64,000 bases of DNA from an uncultured bacterium (GTDB lineage: Bacteria > Patescibacteriota > Minisyncoccia > Phycocordibacterales > CAIJYI01), in contig CAIJYI010000041.1 in NCBI GenBank assembly GCA_903824855.1, positions 27,159 through 91,158 on the forward strand, in the 5' to 3' direction. The notes beneath the pieces are model-generated. The model was not told where the DNA came from and did no database searches. It worked only from the letters and a program-made list of their open reading frames with translations. Numbering within the stretch: the first letter of the stretch is position 1; every line of letters starts with the position of its first letter. Positions 9,203-63,610 of the stretch are shown piece by piece. The position numbers and the translations under genes were made by a program.

Positions 9203-9258
9203 GAAATTTAGATTTTTAAAAAACCGGCGCCAAAATGTCAGTCATAAAAGTAATGTAA

Positions 9259-9771
9259 ATGACATCTTCAATAAAAAATAAATCACTTCATATTGTCTCG
9301 CTATTATTCATATCAATAATGGCACTTCCGAACATTGTGTCAGCAATGACCGTTAGCGTTGGCATACCCGATGCTTTTTCACAGGTGCAAGCGGGAAATA
9401 AGATATATTTTGAAACAGAAATTAAATGGCCGGAAAATACCGGACGTAAAGATTTACGCATCGATTATTCCATATTGGATAAAAATAAAACGGAAATAGC
9501 TCAACTAAAAGTCTTAAGAGCTATCGAGACCCAGGTTTCATTCATGGACGGAATAGCTGTTCCCGCAGATGCTTCTTCGGGTTTGTATACCGTTTTGGTG
9601 AAAATAAGTGATTACGGAACTCTTTCCAAGGAAGCATCCGTGACCTTTAATGTGACTCAAAGTGGAAATTCAACACAGACATATCTCATTGTTATTATTG
9701 GATTTTTAAGTTTTATTTCAATTTTTGTTACTTTTGAATTATTCTTCTTAATGAGAAAGAAATCATTCTGA
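9259..9771 (+). CDS. Secreted, C-terminally anchored hypothetical protein
   Basis: 170 aa. Signal peptide ends ...PNIVSA, and there is a C-terminal TM helix followed by basic residues. Confidence 0.5.
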   Translation: MTSSIKNKSLHIVSLLFISIMALPNIVSAMTVSVGIPDAFSQVQAGNKIYFETEIKWPENTGRKDLRIDYSILDKNKTEIAQLKVLRAIETQVSFMDGIAVPADASSGLYTVLVKISDYGTLSKEASVTFNVTQSGNSTQTYLIVIIGFLSFISIFVTFELFFLMRKKSF

Positions 9772-9825
9772 TGATAGATCAACGCCTCTTTTTTCTTGAA
9801 TAATAAAGGTTTTTTTGAATAAGCA

Positions 9826-9836
9826 GGGGGGGGGGG
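9826..9836. repeat. G11 homopolymeric tract in the promoter region of the (GNN)n surface-protein gene
   Basis: Direct reading (gcaGGGGGGGGGGGagaaaaag). Highly atypical in this AT-rich sequence. Sits about 25 nt upstream of a TTGACA box at 9859. Confidence 0.85.
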
Positions 9837-10032
9837 AGAAAAAGTCCTATCAAAAATGCTTGACAGGGCTATTTCATTATGCTAACGTTGCGAAAGGTCG
9901 TTTTTGAGGAGAGTCTTCAAGAATAGACTATTTGTCCTTTGAAATAATAAAGTACGTAGAAAATCTAACTGATTATTTCAGGGAATTCATGCCGTTTTGG
10001 CATATTTCTTAACTTCTAAAAGGAAGAAAAAA

Positions 10033-32599: not shown

Positions 32600-33283
32600 A
32601 TGCAAGATTTTATCTGGGAACGCGAATATCGAAACCCGCTTTTGGTTACCAAAGGCGAGGATCCGCAGAAAGATACTCTGCGATTTTTGAAGTGGCTCCG
32701 GCGCGAGAGAGAAATTCCTCTTGATCATCTCTCCGTGCTAGATTTGGGATGCGGAACAGGACGAAATTCAAACTATCTCGCAGAACTCGATAATATTGTT
32801 ACCGGATACGAAATTTCAAAAACGGCAATCGAACTGGCAAAAGAACGAGCAAAAAATCTCAAAATCAATGTTGACTATCGAGTCCAGAATATCGGTGCTC
32901 CATACCCACTCGCTGATAATTCAATGGATGTCGTTATTGATGTAACTTCGTCAAATTCATTAAATGAACAAGAAAGAGAAATCTATCTTTCTGAAACAGC
33001 ACGAGTATTAAAACAGGGCGGACATTTTTTTGTAAAAACTCTCTGCAAAGACGGCGACCAGAATGCAAAAGCGCTCATAAAAAATAATCCGGGTCCGGAA
33101 TATGACACCTATATCAATAAAGACATGGGGTTAACCGAGCGCGTTTTTACCGAGAAAGATTTCAGAGAAATGTATTCAAAATATTTTCAAATCCTCGAAC
33201 TGGAAAAAAAGACCAGCTACACCAGATTCAAAAATCAAAGCTACAAAAGAAATTTCTGGCTAGCGTATATGGTAAAATTTTAA
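32600..33283 (+). CDS. Class I SAM-dependent methyltransferase
   Basis: 227 aa. Motif I is VLDLGCGTGRNSNYLA. An acidic motif II follows after a beta strand. Confidence 0.7.
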   Translation: MQDFIWEREYRNPLLVTKGEDPQKDTLRFLKWLRREREIPLDHLSVLDLGCGTGRNSNYLAELDNIVTGYEISKTAIELAKERAKNLKINVDYRVQNIGAPYPLADNSMDVVIDVTSSNSLNEQEREIYLSETARVLKQGGHFFVKTLCKDGDQNAKALIKNNPGPEYDTYINKDMGLTERVFTEKDFREMYSKYFQILELEKKTSYTRFKNQSYKRNFWLAYMVKF

Positions 33284-33286
33284 ATC

Positions 33287-33311
33287 CACTTGGCGGTGAA
33301 ACCGCCAAGTG
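33287..33311. repeat. REP-like 25-nt perfect palindrome (CACTTGGCGG-TGAAA-CCGCCAAGTG), followed by T8
   Basis: Direct reading; 4 nt after the methyltransferase stop codon. Confidence 0.85.
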
Positions 33312-50893: not shown

Positions 50894-51229
50894 ATGGGTA
50901 ATTTTGAAGGAATGCCTTCCGTCTCAAAACAAGAAGAATCACAAAAAGAAAAACTCTCAAAATTGGTAAATTCACTTCTTGCGGATTCTCTACTCGTGGT
51001 TGCAGGAAGTTCAAAGGAAGATATTATCGCGGGAGAAAAAGTGCTTGATGAAAAAATGGCAAAAATGAATCGCGAAGATTTGCTCAATCTCACCATGGAA
51101 ATACAACAATATCTGAACGAACCAAACCCTGATTTTGTGGATGAGTCGATGTACAACCGTTTCAGTATCGTGTACGGTGCCGCGTGCATGCAACTCGAAA
51201 AACTCGACGGCAATACAACCTCAGAGTAA
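50894..51229 (+). CDS. Hypothetical protein
   Basis: 111 aa, acidic, no known domain. Confidence 0.4.
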   Translation: MGNFEGMPSVSKQEESQKEKLSKLVNSLLADSLLVVAGSSKEDIIAGEKVLDEKMAKMNREDLLNLTMEIQQYLNEPNPDFVDESMYNRFSIVYGAACMQLEKLDGNTTSE

Positions 51230-51246
51230 ATCTATTTAAGAAATTC

Positions 51247-51270
51247 ACTTGGCGGTTTCACCGCCAAGTG
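51247..51270. repeat. REP-like palindrome (CACTTGGCGG-TTTCA-CCGCCAAGTG)
   Basis: Direct reading; 18 nt after the stop of 50894-51229. Confidence 0.85.
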
Positions 51271-51280
51271 ATTTTTAATA

Positions 51281-51316: not shown

Positions 51317-51709
51317 TTAATATGCGAAAAGTATATTCCTTATTGCTACGAAAAACCGTACTATGAAAGTGAAAATAATTGTCGTCAATGTCGTAATGAA
51401 TGCGATAATTGATGCAGTTACCAATATTTGCGTAAATGTTAGTAGATGTCCGGGGAGAGTTGAAAACATTCCGGCAAGTAGTAAAATACTAAAACTAACA
51501 AGCGCAATATGAGTACTTCGATGTGATAGATTTCTAATTTTTTCCTGAATTACGAGATTCTTTTTAAGGAACACAATTTCAATGAAAAGAAACAATGAAT
51601 AACTGAATACAAATAATATTAAAAAATTAATCGGTATCAGATTGTATGTCATGATAAATCTCCTTTTTGTGTAAACAAACGTGAAAACAATCTTTCTAAA
51701 TGGTATCAC
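51317..51709 (-). CDS. Small membrane protein (hypothetical)
   Basis: 130 aa with 3 TM helices. Confidence 0.4.
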   Translation of the reverse strand: MIPFRKIVFTFVYTKRRFIMTYNLIPINFLILFVFSYSLFLFIEIVFLKKNLVIQEKIRNLSHRSTHIALVSFSILLLAGMFSTLPGHLLTFTQILVTASIIAFITTLTTIIFTFIVRFFVAIRNILFAY

Positions 51710-51734: not shown

Positions 51735-53681
51735 TTAGGGCTTTAAGGTTTGGGAAGACGATAGTTTTAATTCCAGATTACCTTTAATAATCAAATCCGA
51801 AGCACTGGTCGCTTTTACTTCTTCTTCATAGAGCGTTTTACAGTCTTCAATGGGAAGGACGGTTTGTTTTGACATTGAAAGACATTCGCCATTCTCAAAC
51901 AATCCTCCATCCGTAAAGTTTTTGTAAGTAAGATTTCCGGTCAGTATCGTTGTTATTGCCTTTGAATAAGCGTTGCGAAGGGTCACTCGGTGAGTTTTTC
52001 CGAGCAAATCTTTTCCAAAAAGAGTGCTGGTTGATGTGATGCCGAGAATGTTTTCCACTGTGGGATAAAAATCAAGGTGACTTCCGGGGGTTGAATAAGT
52101 TTTTGCGGGAAGATTGGTTCCGAGAAGAATAAGAGGGACATTACTTGAACGTGTTTCTTTGAAAGCTTTTGTGGTTGATGTCCCAATTAAATCAGAAATA
52201 CCGTAAAGATTTCCGTGATCGCCGTAGATTGCGATTACGGAATTATTATAGAGACCATTTACTTTTAATCCCGCGATAAATTCGCCGATGGCCATGTCGG
52301 TATAATGTATACTTTGCAAATAATCTTTCTGAATAGCATTAAAAGGAGATTTTTCAGGAATGGAGAGTGTCTGTAAATTGGTCGGAATTTTGAATGGTGT
52401 GTGTGAAGAAAGGGTAATCAGTGTCGCCATGAATGGAGACTGAAATCCCGTCATTTCTTGCAATGACTGAGCAAAAAAATCAGAATCGGGAAGGTATTCG
52501 GTTTTCATCGGAACAGGCAAAACAAAATCAGATTTGCTAAAAGATTTTTCATATCCGAGCGCGGGATAAATATTGGAACGATTCCAGAAGGTCGGTTCAT
52601 CTGCGTGCAGGGAATAGGTTCGGTAACCATTTTCTTTCAGGAGGGAAGGGAGAGCGTGGTATTTGTTGTGCGCAAAATCTATAAACGCGACGGTGTTTGT
52701 TAGTGAGTAGAGAGAATTAAGAATGACAAATTCAGCATCGGCCGTATTTCCGGCGCCAACCTGAGTATAATAATTATTGAAATACAAACCGTGTTTTGCA
52801 AGAATATTTAAATTCGGAGTAATTTCCTGACCATTTATTTTTTGAAAAAGTACGGAATTCTCCAAGGACTCTACTTGAATAATGATGAGATTTTTATTTT
52901 TTGCCGAACCGAAGGTGTTCGTTTTTCCTATTTTTGGTACTGCGTCTTTCCATTCTAAAACAAGTGCGATATCTTCGGGGGTTAATTTTGTACTTCGCAA
53001 CGTCATCCCGATAAAATCAGCGGCAAAATAATTAAAAATTCCGATTCTCTGAACGGTCATGTTTGGAGAATAAACAAAGCTGTTCATCTCACGAATCGTT
53101 TGGGGAAAATGTGTGATTTTATACCAACCGTTTCCGTTGCCGAATAAAATTACACCGTATCCAAAAAGACCTATGATTATGATGCACAATAAATAAAAAA
53201 CGCGTAAGTTTTTCCACTTGGCGGTGAAACCGCCAAGTGGAAGTGTATCGATAATTTTTTCCTTTTTTTGGAGAAAAATTCCTATAAAAAGGACGACGAA
53301 TTGGAGAAGAAAAATGATAAGAGAAAAGGAAACAAGATTGAGTATTGATCCAGCGAGCGAGGTGGTTTGACCGGCATATTTAAGAGCCGAGGCCTGCATA
53401 AATCCGCCGAAGTAGGAAAAATAGAGATATTGAGCAAGAAAAAGCCATGCAACAAAAGAGGAAATAATAAAGAGATACACATAGCGCCACCATTTCGAAA
53501 AAAGTACCGATGGGCCGTAAAAAAGTATCCCGAGAGAGAAAGTTGAGAGAATAAAAAGAAAAAAGAAAGGACTGTCATGAAGCCCGACAAATATATTAAA
53601 AATCTGGTTTTGTGCGACGAATAATATCGCCAGTGAAATCGGCAGAAAAAGAAAAGAATTTTTTGGGAGAAATTTCTTCAT
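51735..53681 (-). CDS. LtaS-like sulfatase-family membrane enzyme (polyglycerolphosphate/lipoteichoic-acid synthase-like); contains an in-frame REP copy
   Basis: 648 aa. About 5 N-terminal TM helices, then a sulfatase domain (NLIIIQVESLEN...YYTQVGAGNTADAEF...). REP-encoded LPLGGFTAKW sits in the TM/linker region. Confidence 0.7.
   Translation of the reverse strand: MKKFLPKNSFLFLPISLAILFVAQNQIFNIFVGLHDSPFFFLFILSTFSLGILFYGPSVLFSKWWRYVYLFIISSFVAWLFLAQYLYFSYFGGFMQASALKYAGQTTSLAGSILNLVSFSLIIFLLQFVVLFIGIFLQKKEKIIDTLPLGGFTAKWKNLRVFYLLCIIIIGLFGYGVILFGNGNGWYKITHFPQTIREMNSFVYSPNMTVQRIGIFNYFAADFIGMTLRSTKLTPEDIALVLEWKDAVPKIGKTNTFGSAKNKNLIIIQVESLENSVLFQKINGQEITPNLNILAKHGLYFNNYYTQVGAGNTADAEFVILNSLYSLTNTVAFIDFAHNKYHALPSLLKENGYRTYSLHADEPTFWNRSNIYPALGYEKSFSKSDFVLPVPMKTEYLPDSDFFAQSLQEMTGFQSPFMATLITLSSHTPFKIPTNLQTLSIPEKSPFNAIQKDYLQSIHYTDMAIGEFIAGLKVNGLYNNSVIAIYGDHGNLYGISDLIGTSTTKAFKETRSSNVPLILLGTNLPAKTYSTPGSHLDFYPTVENILGITSTSTLFGKDLLGKTHRVTLRNAYSKAITTILTGNLTYKNFTDGGLFENGECLSMSKQTVLPIEDCKTLYEEEVKATSASDLIIKGNLELKLSSSQTLKP
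53215..53239. repeat. REP-like palindrome inside the LtaS-like ORF (in-frame, encodes LGGFTAKW)
   Basis: Direct reading, confirmed by back-translation against the ORF-track protein. Confidence 0.85.
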
Positions 53682-58873: not shown

Positions 58874-59488
58874 ATGCAAACAAGTTTATTTGATATGGGT
58901 GGCGTACCGGCGAAAGAAAGTTATCTTTTTTTTGATACCGAAACTACCGGGCTTCCAAATCGATGGGGTGCGCCTGTTGAAGATGTCGAAAATTGGCCTC
59001 GCCTCGTTCAGATCGCGTGGCTTATGTTCGAAGAAAGCGGAAAAAAAACAGGGGAGGGAAATGTGATAATTCGACCTGATGGTTTTATCATTCCGCTCGA
59101 TTCCTCACGCATTCATGGAATCACTACGGAGCGGGCACTCGCAGACGGTATCCCCATTCGGCAAGCGCTGGAGACATTTCGCGATGTGATAAAAGAAACG
59201 AATTACCTTGTCGCACACAATATTGATTTTGATGAAAAAATTATCGGAGCAGAATTTATTCGTGCCGAAATGCAACACGACTTTCAGAAAAAGAAAAAGA
59301 TTTGCACCATGAAAAGTTCCGTTGATTTTTGCGCTATCCCGTCTTCTCGCGGTTTCAAATGGCCTCAGTTGAATGAACTTCACATGAAGCTTTTTGGCGA
59401 ACCATTCAAAGACGCCCACGACGCCTCCGTAGACATCGCCGCGACCGCCAAATGTTTCTGGGAACTAAGAAAAAGGGGAGTAATCTAG
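58874..59488 (+). CDS. DnaQ-like DEDDh 3'-5' exonuclease (DNA pol III epsilon family)
   Basis: 204 aa. Exo I motif FFDTETTGL. Exo II motif LVAHNIDFD. Exo III motif HDASVDI. Confidence 0.75.
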   Translation: MQTSLFDMGGVPAKESYLFFDTETTGLPNRWGAPVEDVENWPRLVQIAWLMFEESGKKTGEGNVIIRPDGFIIPLDSSRIHGITTERALADGIPIRQALETFRDVIKETNYLVAHNIDFDEKIIGAEFIRAEMQHDFQKKKKICTMKSSVDFCAIPSSRGFKWPQLNELHMKLFGEPFKDAHDASVDIAATAKCFWELRKRGVI

Positions 59489-59494
59489 GCATTT

Positions 59495-59521
59495 CCACTT
59501 GGCGGTTTCACCGCCAAGTGG
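59495..59521. repeat. REP-like palindrome (CCACTTGGCGG-TTTCA-CCGCCAAGTGG)
   Basis: Direct reading; 7 nt after the exonuclease stop. Confidence 0.85.
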
Positions 59522-59559
59522 AAATTTCAAGAGGAAAAGTTAAAGAATTATAGAAAAAA

Positions 59560-61100: not shown

Positions 61101-61120
61101 TTTGTTTATTTCAAATAATT

Positions 61121-61145
61121 CACTTGGCGGTTTCACCGCCAAGTG
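61121..61145. repeat. REP-like palindrome (TTTCA loop orientation) 17 nt upstream of the RAYT gene
   Basis: Direct reading. Confidence 0.85.
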
Positions 61146-61161
61146 ATATGATTGCTGAACT

Positions 61162-61818
61162 ATGAATAGACAACCAATGGTAACAGGGGAATTTTATCAT
61201 GCATACAATCACGGAGTGGAAGACCGCGACATTATTCTTGATAATTTTGATGCTCTCCGTTTTTTAGAAAGTATGAGAGTGTTTAACTGTGTACAACCCA
61301 TCGGTAGTATATACGAGCAGTCATTTGTTCACGAAAATTTACTTGGCGGTGAAACCGCCAAGTCAAAATTGGTTAACATCGTTGCCTATTGTATTAATCC
61401 GAATCACTTCCATTTATTACTTGAACAGGTGTCAGATAATGGAATAAGCGAATTCATGAAGCGTTTAGGAGGAGGATATACATGGTATTACAACAATAAA
61501 CATAAGAGAAAAGGAAGTCTGTTCCGGGGTGTTTTTCGCTCATCTCATATCTCCACAGACGCATACATAAATCATTTAAGTGCTTATATAAATCTAAATG
61601 ATCACGTTCATCAACTTGGCGGTGAAACCGCCAAGTTGGTTAAGTCGAGTTGGGGAGAGTATATTGGAAAAGTTACTCATCCGATGTGCACAAAAGAAAT
61701 TGTTTTAGGTCAATTCAAAAATAAAAAAGAATATAAAAAATATGCAGAAGATTCTCTCTCCGGAATGCAGGACAGAAAAAAAATAGAAAGAGAAGAAAAA
61801 TATTTAATGATTGATTAA
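61162..61818 (+). CDS. REP-associated tyrosine transposase (RAYT; IS200/IS605 TnpA-like HUH Y1 enzyme) carrying two in-frame REP copies
   Basis: 218 aa. HUH motif is NPNHFHLLLE. The region GGGYTWYYNNKHKRKGSLFRGVF resembles the TnpA core, and the catalytic-Tyr region is AYINHLSAYINLN. REP-encoded NLLGGETAKSKL and HQLGGETAKLVK interrupt it. Confidence 0.75.
   Translation: MNRQPMVTGEFYHAYNHGVEDRDIILDNFDALRFLESMRVFNCVQPIGSIYEQSFVHENLLGGETAKSKLVNIVAYCINPNHFHLLLEQVSDNGISEFMKRLGGGYTWYYNNKHKRKGSLFRGVFRSSHISTDAYINHLSAYINLNDHVHQLGGETAKLVKSSWGEYIGKVTHPMCTKEIVLGQFKNKKEYKKYAEDSLSGMQDRKKIEREEKYLMID
61341..61363. repeat. REP-like palindrome inside the RAYT ORF (encodes LLGGETAKS)
   Basis: Direct reading. 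Confidence 0.85.
61614..61636. repeat. REP-like palindrome inside the RAYT ORF (encodes QLGGETAKL)
   Basis: Direct reading. Confidence 0.85.
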
Positions 61819-61823
61819 TTTTT

Positions 61824-61848
61824 CACTTGGCGGTGAAACCGCCAAGTG
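61824..61848. repeat. REP-like palindrome (TGAAA loop orientation) 6 nt after the RAYT stop; inverted relative to 61121-61145
   Basis: Direct reading. Confidence 0.85.
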
Positions 61849-61860
61849 AAAAAGTATAAA

Positions 61861-61890
61861 AAATCCCCCGATGTGGGGGATTTATGTTTA
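61861..61890 (+). terminator. Terminator-like hairpin (AAATCCCCC-GATGT-GGGGGATTT) + ATGTTTAT
   Basis: Direct reading. Confidence 0.5.
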
Positions 61891-62290: not shown

Positions 62291-63610
62291 TTAGGGGATG
62301 AATAACAACCCCGCAAAACTTGAAATGGCGACGATGGAAATGGCGATGATGAAACGAACGGCAAATTTTTTCGTACCCTGAAGGTAGGAGTAAACCGCTT
62401 TGCTAATTAAGTTCGTTGCGTTTACCAAGAGGAACACGATTAAGGCAAATTTGAGAGTAATAGTCGGTCCGGCCATTTCCGCGAGATTGATAACGATAGC
62501 ATCCATTCCGACAAATGAGGCGATAATGGAACTGATGATAAATCCTGCATTTCCGAACATGATCAAACAGATTTTTGTGAGAAGTTTAACACAGGTGATA
62601 AGTACCGCAAATTTGAGGGCTGATTCAAGAGAGAAAATTTTGAAATCTTTGATACCGCGTTCTTCCACGGTTATTTCCGGCTCGTGTTTTTTGAGGAAAT
62701 AAATGGAAAGTAATCCTGCGGTCGCAATCATTATGAGCAAGCTCGGAATAAGTGAAATGAGCCATTGGCCATTGAGAGGCCCTGCAAGGAGAAATACCTG
62801 CATAAAACTTGCCATGTTGGAGAGAAGTGCTGCTCCGATGAGGTAATTTATTACATGGCTTTTTTGACTGCGAAGAGCGAGTGATTGAGTGGTGGAAGTT
62901 GAAGAAACAAATCCTCCGAGAAAGCTTGCGACGGTAAAACTGCTTTTATTACCGATAAGTCTACCTAACGCATATCCGAAGACGTCGATTCCTGTAATGA
63001 GTACGACAACAAACCACAGTTTTTGGGGATTGATTATCTCAAGATTCATGAATGGTCCGATGGAAAGATTCATATTCTGGATTATCTGAACGACGACGGG
63101 GATACTATTGAGTGAATAGCCGATATTTGGAAGAAAGGGAAGAATGACGAGCGAAATAATCGCGTAATTGATGAACGATTGAATCTCATTTTGCGATACG
63201 CCTTGTACGAGTTGTTTTGACTTCGCTTTAATCGATAAGATCATGACAAGTACGACAAAAATGGCGACGATGAGCTGAAGCGGAACGATATCAAGCATCG
63301 GTAACATTCCGATAATAAACGTGAAAAATGTTGCGACTTCGGTGGTCATTCCGAAATCTCCCGTGCGCACCGAACCTGTGGCATAATAAATCAGAATCAT
63401 CACGAAGAAACAAATCGCGATGGCTAAGGAAAGAATGACAAGGTTGTTAATGTAAAAGATTCCACATATGGCACCGAGAAGAGCGATAAGCGCGTAGGTT
63501 CTCATTCCTCCGGCTGAACCTTCTTGTGGTTGTCCTGTTTCCCTTTCTAATCCGACTGCGGCGCCGAAGAGGATAGAGAGAACGAGTTTAAATGCAAGAA
63601 TTGATATCAT
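62291..63610 (-). CDS. MgtC/SapB-family membrane protein fused to a DUF4010-like polytopic domain
   Basis: 439 aa. MgtC signature GAAVGLERE...AGGMRTYALIALLGA at the N-terminus, followed by about 10 TM helices. Confidence 0.65.
   Translation of the reverse strand: MISILAFKLVLSILFGAAVGLERETGQPQEGSAGGMRTYALIALLGAICGIFYINNLVILSLAIAICFFVMILIYYATGSVRTGDFGMTTEVATFFTFIIGMLPMLDIVPLQLIVAIFVVLVMILSIKAKSKQLVQGVSQNEIQSFINYAIISLVILPFLPNIGYSLNSIPVVVQIIQNMNLSIGPFMNLEIINPQKLWFVVVLITGIDVFGYALGRLIGNKSSFTVASFLGGFVSSTSTTQSLALRSQKSHVINYLIGAALLSNMASFMQVFLLAGPLNGQWLISLIPSLLIMIATAGLLSIYFLKKHEPEITVEERGIKDFKIFSLESALKFAVLITCVKLLTKICLIMFGNAGFIISSIIASFVGMDAIVINLAEMAGPTITLKFALIVFLLVNATNLISKAVYSYLQGTKKFAVRFIIAISIVAISSFAGLLFIP

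Follow-up and report, generated by a model that had tools for sequence, protein, structure and literature searches.

A RAYT-like transposase gene of Patescibacteria with cognate palindromic hairpins inside and around its reading frame, and the often coding dispersal of the same repeat

The 64,000-nucleotide stretch of DNA analysed here (from contig CAIJYI010000041.1 of assembly GCA_903824855.1; hereafter the window) has a G+C content of 39.6%, and the closest relatives of its proteins come from metagenome-assembled genomes (MAGs) of Paceibacteria/Parcubacteria. It contains a gene for a Y1/HUH transposase that resembles the REP-associated tyrosine transposases (RAYTs; REP, repetitive extragenic palindromic), a gene for a protein resembling lipoteichoic acid (LTA) synthase, LtaS, and eight identical copies of a short hairpin, ACTTGGCGGT-GAA-ACCGCCAAGT, three of which lie in frame within open reading frames (ORFs), one in the LtaS-like and two in the RAYT-like ORF (Table 1). 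Four of the eight copies cluster at the RAYT gene, which is present once in the window, and these four and the four dispersed copies have one common sequence. The coding palindromes had been described in an earlier note, and the sequence is as it reported: CACTTGGCGGTGAAACCGCCAAGTG, at 53215-53239, gives PLGGFTAKW when read on the minus strand, ACTTGGCGGTGAAACCGCCAAGT, found at both 61341-61363 and 61614-61636, encodes LGGETAK each time, and within the window the three coding copies share one frame and none carries a stop. Beyond that note, we found that two further copies flank the RAYT ORF (61120-61146 and 61819-61853).

Table 1. Genes, hairpins and signals of the window discussed in the text
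Feature	Position	Strand	Description
Dispersed copy	33287..33311		Palindrome begins 4 nt past the stop of a methyltransferase gene (32600-33283)
Dispersed copy	51245..51271		Between convergent ORFs 50894-51229 (+) and 51317-51709 (-)
LTA-synthase-like gene	51735..53681	-	648 aa; Pfam Sulfatase, E=4e-38; homologs named LTA synthase family protein
LtaS copy	53212..53242		23-nt core lengthened to a 14-bp stem (TTCCACTTGGCGGT gaa ACCGCCAAGTGGAA)
Dispersed copy	59491..59525		16-bp stem; extended stem begins 3 nt past the stop of an RNase_T-family exonuclease gene (58874-59488)
5' flanking hairpin	61120..61146	.	12-bp stem; loop ttc (inverted relative to the other three); -21.4 kcal/mol
Putative extended -10 box	61144..61152	+	TGATATGAT; the hairpin foot ends in the TG of this box; 9 nt before the ATG; from a promoter scan
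RAYT-like Y1/HUH transposase gene	61162..61818	+	218 aa; HUH at H82/H84, catalytic Tyr Y142
Intragenic hairpin, site 1	61341..61363	+	10-bp stem; loop gaa; LGGETAK, aa 61-67
Intragenic hairpin, site 2	61612..61638	+	12-bp stem; loop gaa; QLGGETAKL, aa 151-159; -22 kcal/mol
3' flanking hairpin	61819..61853	.	16-bp stem; begins at the first base past the TAA stop

The exact 21-mer at the heart of the repeat, CTTGGCGGTGAAACCGCCAAG, occurs eight times in the window (starting at 33289, 51248, 53217, 59498, 61123, 61342, 61615 and 61826) and not once in 100 dinucleotide-preserving shuffles. In all eight copies it is preceded by an A and followed by a T, so that the unit is a perfect palindrome of 23 nt with a 10-bp stem and a 3-nt loop, and a search across the window for degenerate copies with one to three mismatches returned none besides the eight exact ones. 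Only one of the palindrome's six reading frames contains a stop, namely WR*NRQ (frame 2 with the GAA loop). As RNA, the hairpins are predicted to be stable (-17 to -25 kcal/mol, z -4 to -7.5; for the LtaS copy -25.2 kcal/mol, z=-6.3). The dispersed intergenic copies (four) lie shortly past stop codons or between convergent ORFs; these copies just downstream of genes resemble terminators, and the one at 33287..33311, with eight T immediately after it, looks like an intrinsic terminator. Considering also the variants described below, it is a repeat of the REP type whose foot, ACTTGG/CCAAGT, is invariant, with four variable inner stem pairs and a 3-nt loop. An assembly artefact was rejected, given that the same architecture recurs in many independent assemblies, as were CRISPR and tandem repeats, the copies being dispersed single hairpins.

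The RAYT-like protein scores above the gathering threshold of Pfam Y1_Tnp (PF01797; 36.4 bits against a cutoff of 23, E=6e-9, aa 64-144), and its homologs carry the name RayT at JGI. The HUH motif (H82-F-H84) and the catalytic tyrosine Y142 are invariant among 28 aligned homologs, and in an AlphaFold (AF2) model (predicted local distance difference test, pLDDT, 83; predicted template modelling score, pTM, 0.81) they sit on strand E82-89 and on helix H133-144, respectively. The top Foldseek match of this model is the E. coli RAYT-REP complex (4er8_A, E=2e-6, TM(target) 0.61), a modest match at 12% identity that nevertheless ranks ahead of the TnpA proteins of IS608 and ISDra2. The protein belongs to a Patescibacteria-specific branch of RAYT-like Y1/HUH transposases. 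An exhaustive search of 1.84 billion cluster representatives returned 161 relatives at E <= 1e-30. Some MAGs carry a second, distant paralog (L017, L026, L007; L numbers denote the loci compared).

For a comparison of whole loci, the contigs of homologs with variant peptides were fetched, and RAYT genes were located in all loci obtained. Hairpins occupy four conserved places in these loci: 31-51 nt before the ATG, at about +179, at about +450 to +469, and 0-7 nt past the stop codon. In the window the 5' hairpin is placed 42 nt upstream of the ATG, and successive hairpins are spaced by 219, 273 and 211 nt. The same four positions are filled in L083, L085, L087, L088, L009, L046 and L079 and partly filled in L092, L080, L032, L048, L054 and L090. 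As in the window, the gene is flanked by the genome's own REP in 14 other loci; 14 other RAYT loci have a hairpin at the 5' site (-31 to -51 relative to the ATG), and the 3' hairpin begins 0-7 nt past the stop in 11 of the 12 loci printed, the exception being L046. One of the two intragenic hairpins precedes and the other follows the catalytic core, with its HUH motif at aa 82-84 and its Tyr at aa 142. When placed by the AF2 model and Foldseek, site 1 falls in a loop of pLDDT <50 immediately ahead of the HUH strand, and the site-2 heptapeptide (aa 152-158) in a loop just after the tyrosine helix. The idea that a REP had replaced part of the catalytic region is contradicted by the invariance of H82, H84 and Y142 and by the position of both sites in loops.

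Both LGGETAK segments correspond to ungapped columns of the family alignment, and homologs without the motif are equal in length there, carrying for example LKGKKPQ or LSEESLK. The two intragenic copies are therefore old, inherited parts of the layout and no new insertions, and they have their frame in common by descent. The layout can also be followed as it decays: site 2 is gone from L092, nothing but the two flanking hairpins, their feet altered, is left in L090, and L091 has none of the four. The distant paralogs of L017, L026 and L082 have hairpins of unrelated sequence (GCAAAGGA, TCGCAAGGT, TGTCAAACAC), which flank the gene and also sit in frame inside it at about +156 to +170, in the same variable stretch ahead of the HUH strand. 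The distance from site 1 to site 2 was a multiple of three in every locus seen (273, 279, 285 or 288), so that a deletion between the two intragenic hairpins would stay in frame while removing the active site.

Comparison of the four hairpins within and between loci points to concerted evolution. Among 121 homologs, the site-1 and site-2 heptapeptides are identical at 7/7 positions in 60 and at 6/7 in 25, with at least 17 variants shared between the sites (including LGGEASK, LGRPTSK, LGGLTPK, LGSSTPK and LGNETSK), and mean heptapeptide identity is 5.28/7 within a protein against 4.01 between proteins, a value that none of 5000 permutations reached. At the DNA level, the four hairpins of a locus are alike, while between loci the inner stem pairs and the loop differ, with both arms changing together: CGGT-gaa-ACCG in the window, L009 and L046, ACGT-ccg-ACGT in L083, AGGT-tta-ACCT in L085, AGGC-gaa-GCCT in L087, GAGT-tcc-ACTC in L088, GGGT-gaa-ACCC in L092 and AGGC-ccg-GCCT in L079. 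Across ten variants every cell is paired (100%) and both sides have changed in 6 of 10 pairs, which none of 500 shuffles matched. These ten variants include a single G-U pair, and this near-absence of G-U pairs means that the hairpin is symmetric on both DNA strands. Of 131 full-length representatives with <50% mutual identity, 11 have exactly the same heptapeptide twice, at about aa 58-61 and again at about aa 147-160 (none in shuffled sequences), and a perfect 9+3+9 palindrome can encode 15 of the 23 repeated heptapeptides, against 0.27% of random ones. It follows that the DNA dictates the peptides of the RAYT and that the layout is an old feature of this branch of the family. The variant at the RAYT gene is also linked to that of the genome: CGGT hairpins were found at 7 of 9 RAYT loci in genomes retrieved via the CGGT 21-mer and, barring one 3' copy, at 0 of 7 loci retrieved via protein homology alone (one-sided Fisher p ~0.003, hand-computed).

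The repeat itself is widespread. Many Patescibacteria MAGs, among them some with the labels Nomura-, Zambryski-, Giovannoni- and Kaiserbacteria, contain the exact 21-mer, in 82 stretches altogether. The 657 kb surveyed hold 104 exact copies, compared with 3, 5 and 2 copies at one, two and three mismatches, respectively; several of these mismatched copies are compensatory variants or the second unit of a tight doublet. The flank consensus of the 104 copies, YCA-core-TGR, is itself palindromic, and palindromy extends further into flanking sequence peculiar to each copy, on average by 2.1 bp (~0.33 expected) and at most by 15 bp, often with an A-run opposite a T-run; the copies at 59491-59525 and 61819-61853 of the window are examples. 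Candidate explanations of this extension are inverted copying of the target, extension by template switching and insertion into the stems of existing terminators. In REPINs (Bertels & Rainey), two inverted REPs with a spacer form the mobile unit; most copies here are singlets, alongside a few tight doublets. Such doublets, with opposite loops and overlapping or adjacent feet, were seen at L023 3890-3935, L005 6675-6714, L066 6447-6486, L045 2960-2999 and L049 ~5704; they lie in frame within MiaA, LigA, PNPase, DnaG and DnaE (for example DLAVSPPSQLGGETAK) and resemble the dimers known as REPINs and BIMEs (bacterial interspersed mosaic elements), but are translated.

About half of the copies are coding; dispersed copies of this kind lie in frame within loops of housekeeping proteins. 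A copy was called by the longest open frame that spans the palindrome, with a threshold of an ORF of at least 150 aa, and by this measure 51 of the 96 non-RAYT copies lie inside ORFs; about six of these are at the extreme N-terminus and may precede the true start. All 20 host ORFs scanned belong to genuine families (TsaD, MiaA, ArgRS, three DnaE, LigA, UvrA, PNPase, TopA, DnaG, PolA, GatB and TatD, two FAD-binding oxidases, a peptidase S9 and surface Ig-like proteins), with the copy inside the domain envelope in most, which bears out the earlier comparison with Rickettsia palindromic elements (RPEs) as far as in-frame residence in real genes is concerned. One coding-copy host (L026 860-2515, minus strand) joins an intein splicing domain with bacterial surface Ig-like domains.

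The expectation that the copies always use the same reading frame did not survive this wider sample: the 51 coding copies divide into 24 read as LGG(E/F)TAK (18 LGGETAK and 6 LGGFTAK), 26 read as LAV(K/S)PP (8 LAVKPP and 18 LAVSPP) and a single WRFHRQ, which at residue 4 of its ORF is probably non-coding. Two frames are thus used about equally, and the LtaS copy had a roughly even chance of matching the frame of the RAYT copies; the third, stop-prone frame is depleted (P(<=1/51 at p=0.2) = 1.6e-4). Both loop orientations occur at one site in all four ortholog groups with a common site and frame (TsaD, MiaA, the FAD oxidase and ArgRS), and a flip of the loop would turn a third-frame copy into WR*NRQ, with a TGA stop. 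We believe that this is probably the reason why the third frame is avoided.

Orthologous sites indicate how long such copies can stay. Filled and empty ortholog pairs were found for LtaS, DnaE and MiaA, whereas in TatD the peptide takes the place of a segment of similar length instead of being added to it, and several filled/empty sites likewise show replacement in place of net insertion. Orthologous copies persist in proteins that are 55-84% identical. In ArgRS, the HLAVKPPS segment is ungapped in an alignment of 120 homologs and belongs to a graded series (HLAVQPP, HLEVEPP, HLEAKLP, HLETKFP, YLNKNKP), and at this one site the DNA forms a perfect palindrome with 10-bp arms in six genomes, in four inner-stem variants: CGGT/ACCG (three genomes, both loop orientations), AGGT/ACCT, AAGC/GCTT and AAAC/GTTT. 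The ArgRS hairpin has accordingly stayed in an essential gene while the proteins diverged to ~60% identity, evolving through paired changes that the peptide followed. Given four variants at one site, some coding copies are old residents, while others, such as that of LtaS, are recent.

The LtaS copy is the clearest case of insertion. Seven extra residues are present in the window protein alone, and a gap stands there in 119 of the 119 other homologs (in alignments with 23 and then with all 120), so that the copy is a clean, recent and lineage-specific insertion of exactly seven codons (21 nt). In the AF2 model (mean pLDDT 69) it falls in the loop of aa 140-153, between helices H119-139 and H154-180, with residues 149-152 at pLDDT <50, and this model supports a tolerant linker as its site. 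The earlier proposal of recent insertion into tolerant linkers, and the ortholog alignment meant to decide it, therefore divide the copies: the insertion reading holds for LtaS and fails for the RAYT, where the segments occupy ungapped, family-wide columns. Exact insertion boundaries and a target duplication were sought in the filled/empty pairs and could not be defined, the relatives being too diverged (for LtaS, <=67% protein identity). At the point of insertion, many LtaS homologs (P0165-P0232) read LP followed by KWEK, that is CCN AAR TGG, near the element foot CCAAGTGG; this resemblance may hint at a preference for a foot-like target sequence.

Signals around the RAYT gene are consistent with a link between the hairpins and its expression. 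In eight loci, a TGnTATAAT-like extended -10 box starts on the last two bases of the foot of the 5' hairpin and ends 7-10 nt before the ATG, and the box is kept even in L091, where the hairpin has decayed. No Shine-Dalgarno sequence precedes the ATG of the RAYT gene, and its mRNA is probably leaderless. The 5' hairpin would cover the -35 and spacer region of this putative promoter. The hairpins of the locus probably curb RAYT expression: the 5' copy could occlude the promoter, the two stable hairpins within the ORF could impede translation, and the 3' copy adjoins the stop codon. Such self-limitation fits both the signals and the predicted hairpin stabilities. A separate hairpin, AAATCCCCCgatgtGGGGGATTT, lies at 61861-61883, 8 nt past the 3' REP, with a terminator-like score on either strand. 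For the RAYT gene and the convergent MgtC/DUF4010 gene (62291-63610), this hairpin, which lies between them, is probably the real terminator.

We think it likely that these observations describe one system, in which a REP-type hairpin and a RAYT-like branch of transposases share a four-hairpin locus, the RAYT copies or exchanges hairpins, loop flips limit the reading frames open to coding copies, and the expression of the enzyme is self-limited. In the mechanism that we propose, the RAYT would recognise the folded, single-stranded hairpin, and its cleave-and-rejoin chemistry at the foot would copy or exchange hairpins between sites, which would seed new copies and homogenise existing ones. Template switching inside the hairpin would keep the arms perfectly complementary, recombination between the arms would flip the loop, and copies in the third frame, gaining a TGA stop upon such a flip, would be purged. 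The anatomy of the locus and its evolution are well supported; the enzymology and the regulation we infer.

Several results weigh against this account, the first being that binding, cutting and moving of the hairpin, homogenisation by the RAYT and autoregulation are themselves among the inferred steps. The protein falls below the NCBI cutoff for its best NCBIfam model, the equivalog RayT NF047646 (26.4 bits against 80); with 16.2 against a cutoff of 55 for the IS200 model, these scores place it nearer to RayT than to IS200 but outside the curated RayT family. A family-profile search against PDB sequences gave no match to a solved structure. Near the foot (up to 12 nt away), the tetranucleotides GTAG, CTAC, CGTC and GACG are present in 3-6% of the 104 copies, which is background, and the canonical GTAG guide is absent; as there is no tag, only the loop of the element departs from full symmetry. 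In the frame survey, ORFs were taken from stop to stop instead of from curated gene calls, and the sample was ascertained on the exact 21-mer. In addition, some loci are discordant: the L029/L087-type RAYT has AGGC at three sites, but its 3' flank (in L087 at 9618-9652, the CGGT variant of the window) and at least 11 dispersed copies in the MAG are CGGT; the RAYT of L079 is AGGC, though a CGGT copy lies elsewhere in the same MAG; and L048 (RAYT on the minus strand) is a mosaic, with CGGTgaaACCG at the 5' hairpin and site 1 and AGGTtcaACCT at site 2 and the 3' hairpin. Second RAYTs, recombination between loci of this kind or replacement at single sites could underlie these cases. Finally, no dispersed copies of the variant hairpins were found within 10 kb on either side of four homolog RAYT genes, so the hairpins of a RAYT locus can exist without an obvious dispersed population.

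The hairpins might instead be neutral and self-maintaining, with no enzyme acting in trans. Template switching together with ordinary recombination or gene conversion would preserve them, selection would remove only harmful copies, and the association with the RAYT would be historical, the hairpins being the ends of a dead IS200-like element. The perfect Watson-Crick pairing of the stems with almost no G-T pairs, the spread of palindromy into copy-specific flanks (mean 2.1 bp against 0.33), the common loop flips, the stepwise decay in L090, L091 and L092 and the discordant or mosaic loci are all what such passengers would produce. We nonetheless consider this explanation unlikely. Homologous gene conversion would have very short substrates in repeats of 21-27 bp, yet all 8 copies of the window are identical over distances of tens of kb, and the population as a whole shows hardly any variation (104 exact copies, about 10 with one to three mismatches). 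Moreover, lineages of <50% identity have kept the RAYT ORF, its catalytic residues and the four-hairpin layout, which argues for a working pair of enzyme and substrate.

The reading closest to the earlier note, in which an RPE-like mobile palindrome was recently inserted into tolerant linkers, twice within the RAYT, with a preference for one frame and at the cost of catalytic damage, is in our judgement quite improbable. The LtaS loop insertion fits it cleanly, as do the one frame shared by the three coding copies of the window and the eight identical window copies, which recent spread would give. For the RAYT copies it is largely refuted: the sites are ungapped and family-wide and recur in lineages with unrelated hairpins, the HUH and Tyr residues are invariant and the peptides lie in loops. 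Nor does it account for two equally used frames among 51 coding copies, or for orthologous copies in proteins 55-84% identical and four palindrome variants at one ArgRS site.

We regard it as very unlikely that the repeat is a host signal unrelated to transposition, such as a DNA-uptake-type signal or a structural, terminator or RNA-stability element, that is needed at its coding sites. Intergenic copies do lie just downstream of genes, some of them followed by a T-run, orthologous sites are long-lived, and the host genes are rich in replication, repair and tRNA functions, a bias that DNA uptake sequences show as well. A similar functional bias has been reported for intragenic REPs (PMC3733652). 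However, Patescibacteria genomes are already rich in information-processing genes. Against a host signal also stand the tight physical and evolutionary coupling to one gene family, with its own variant inside the gene, the low density of eight copies in 64 kb, and the free variation of inner stem and loop between related genomes, which a species-wide recognition signal would not tolerate; in addition, the near-absence of G-U pairs implies a two-strand symmetry that a function in RNA alone fails to explain. Selection on the protein, with LGGETAK as a functional motif duplicated in the RAYT and the other DNA repeats as by-products, is hardly credible and effectively refuted: the motif does occur twice per protein and recurs across many homologs, but the peptide varies widely (LGRPTSK, LGSSTPK, LGYQVSK, CKGPTFA, LRSEASQ) and always as a palindrome requires, with paired stem changes across variants and heptapeptides that a palindrome can encode, the same sequence appears in non-coding flanks and elsewhere in the other frame, and both sites are low-confidence loops.

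Among known systems, the REPtrons are the closest (Nunvar 2010, PMC2817692; Ton-Hoang 2012, PMC3333891; Messing 2012, PMC3479197; Corneloup 2021, PMC8266576), and within them the 'group 3' REPs, which like this element are short perfect palindromes. As in REPtrons, a Y1/HUH gene has short GC-rich hairpins on both sides, further copies of the hairpin are scattered through the genome, for the most part shortly after genes, and the hairpin varies together with the enzyme from genome to genome; the predicted fold is nearest to the E. coli RAYT-REP complex. Cleavage and rejoining of single-stranded REPs by RAYTs takes place at CT/CA next to the hairpin (PMC8266576). Canonical REPs carry a GTAG/CGTC tag (PMC3733652, PMC8266576), whereas the repeat described here has none and is symmetric except for its loop; it shares with REPs the short, repeated, dispersed and GC-rich stem-loop, and differs from them also in that it is not nearly exclusively extragenic (51 of 96 copies in ORFs) and that cognate hairpins lie in frame at two conserved positions within the RAYT ORF. 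Intragenic REPs that lie wholly inside ORFs and are translated, as singles or dimers, have been reported, notably in uvrA, dnaE, polA, ligase and tRNA synthetase genes (Di Nocera et al., 2013, PMC3733652). The host categories, DNA synthesis and repair and tRNA synthetases, are the same here, but intragenic copies are a minority in the genomes of that study and about half of our sample; that paper describes neither a frame rule nor orthologous sites whose stems evolve by compensation, nor copies within a RAYT ORF, mentioning at RAYT genes only REPs that overlap the 5' or 3' end (PMC3733652).

RPEs, according to Ogata 2000 and 2002 as relayed in PMC10969869, are in-frame palindromes within unrelated, often essential genes, at surface-exposed parts of the proteins. 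The present element is like them in leaving its host genes intact and unlike the classic RPEs of that account, which measure ~100-150 bp, encode 30-50 residues and have no known transposase, in that it spans 21-27 nt and 7-9 residues and is tied to a RAYT. With IS200/IS605 elements (IS608, ISDra2) it shares the Y1 HUH enzyme, which in those elements recognises subterminal hairpins of single-stranded DNA; the hairpins at the two ends of the gene also affect its expression. The left-end hairpin of IS200 acts as a terminator, and a hairpin in its 5' untranslated region hides the ribosome binding site. Those elements have two differing, imperfect hairpins, guide tetranucleotides by which the cleavage sites are defined, and whole-element mobility, in contrast to the four identical perfect palindromes seen here, two of them in the ORF, and to a gene that is seemingly vertically inherited.

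The system is thus a variant of REP/RAYT that is tag-less, fully symmetric and often coding, with the substrate within the reading frame of its own enzyme. Intragenic REPs are already known, but a RAYT gene whose own in-frame hairpins evolve in concert appears to be undescribed: in the accessible, open-access portion of the RAYT literature, REPs flank the RAYT gene or overlap its ends, and none of these accounts describes copies within the ORF or concerted evolution; literature searches on palindromic repeats in Patescibacteria likewise brought up nothing that bears on the RAYT-internal copies. We put forward only tentatively, as a possibility that we hold to be doubtful, that this is a distinct Patescibacteria REPtron that carries its own hairpins as codons around the catalytic core and at its promoter and stop, whose enzyme continuously rewrites all copies genome-wide to one common sequence, those long embedded in essential genes among them, and whose intragenic copies act as a built-in autoregulatory or self-processing circuit. 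If so, short stretches of many housekeeping proteins would be dictated by DNA structure and would change in step, and the intragenic copies would form a natural record of a repeat and its enzyme jointly shifting specificity. How REPs spread and stay matched to their RAYT is poorly understood (PMC8266576), and these loci offer many independent natural replicates of an enzyme gene with four substrate copies, in which lineage and variant can be read from a few hundred bases and the co-evolution of specificity can be analysed directly from sequence. They also show that in small, gene-dense genomes a selfish or semi-domesticated hairpin can reside for long in essential genes, with the peptide following what the DNA structure needs, a matter of relevance to annotation, to phylogenies of Patescibacteria built from alignments of marker proteins and to the reading of lineage-specific insertions. 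A rule by which only those frames survive that have no stop in either loop orientation makes a simple prediction for other palindromic repeats.

The surroundings of the gene recur as well. SHMT, TGT, QueA and radical SAM genes are recurrent neighbours in the homolog loci, and at the RAYT and ArgRS loci L083, L091, L092, L093 and L095 the recurring neighbours are SHMT, TGT, QueA, thymidylate synthase and DHFR, which suggests that gene order is conserved across these Patescibacteria and that the RAYT is inherited vertically. In L090, an AGGCgaaGCCT hairpin lies at 9565-9587 within a uracil-DNA glycosylase gene (9220-9891, minus strand) next to the RAYT gene, whose own hairpins are of a different variant with an altered foot.

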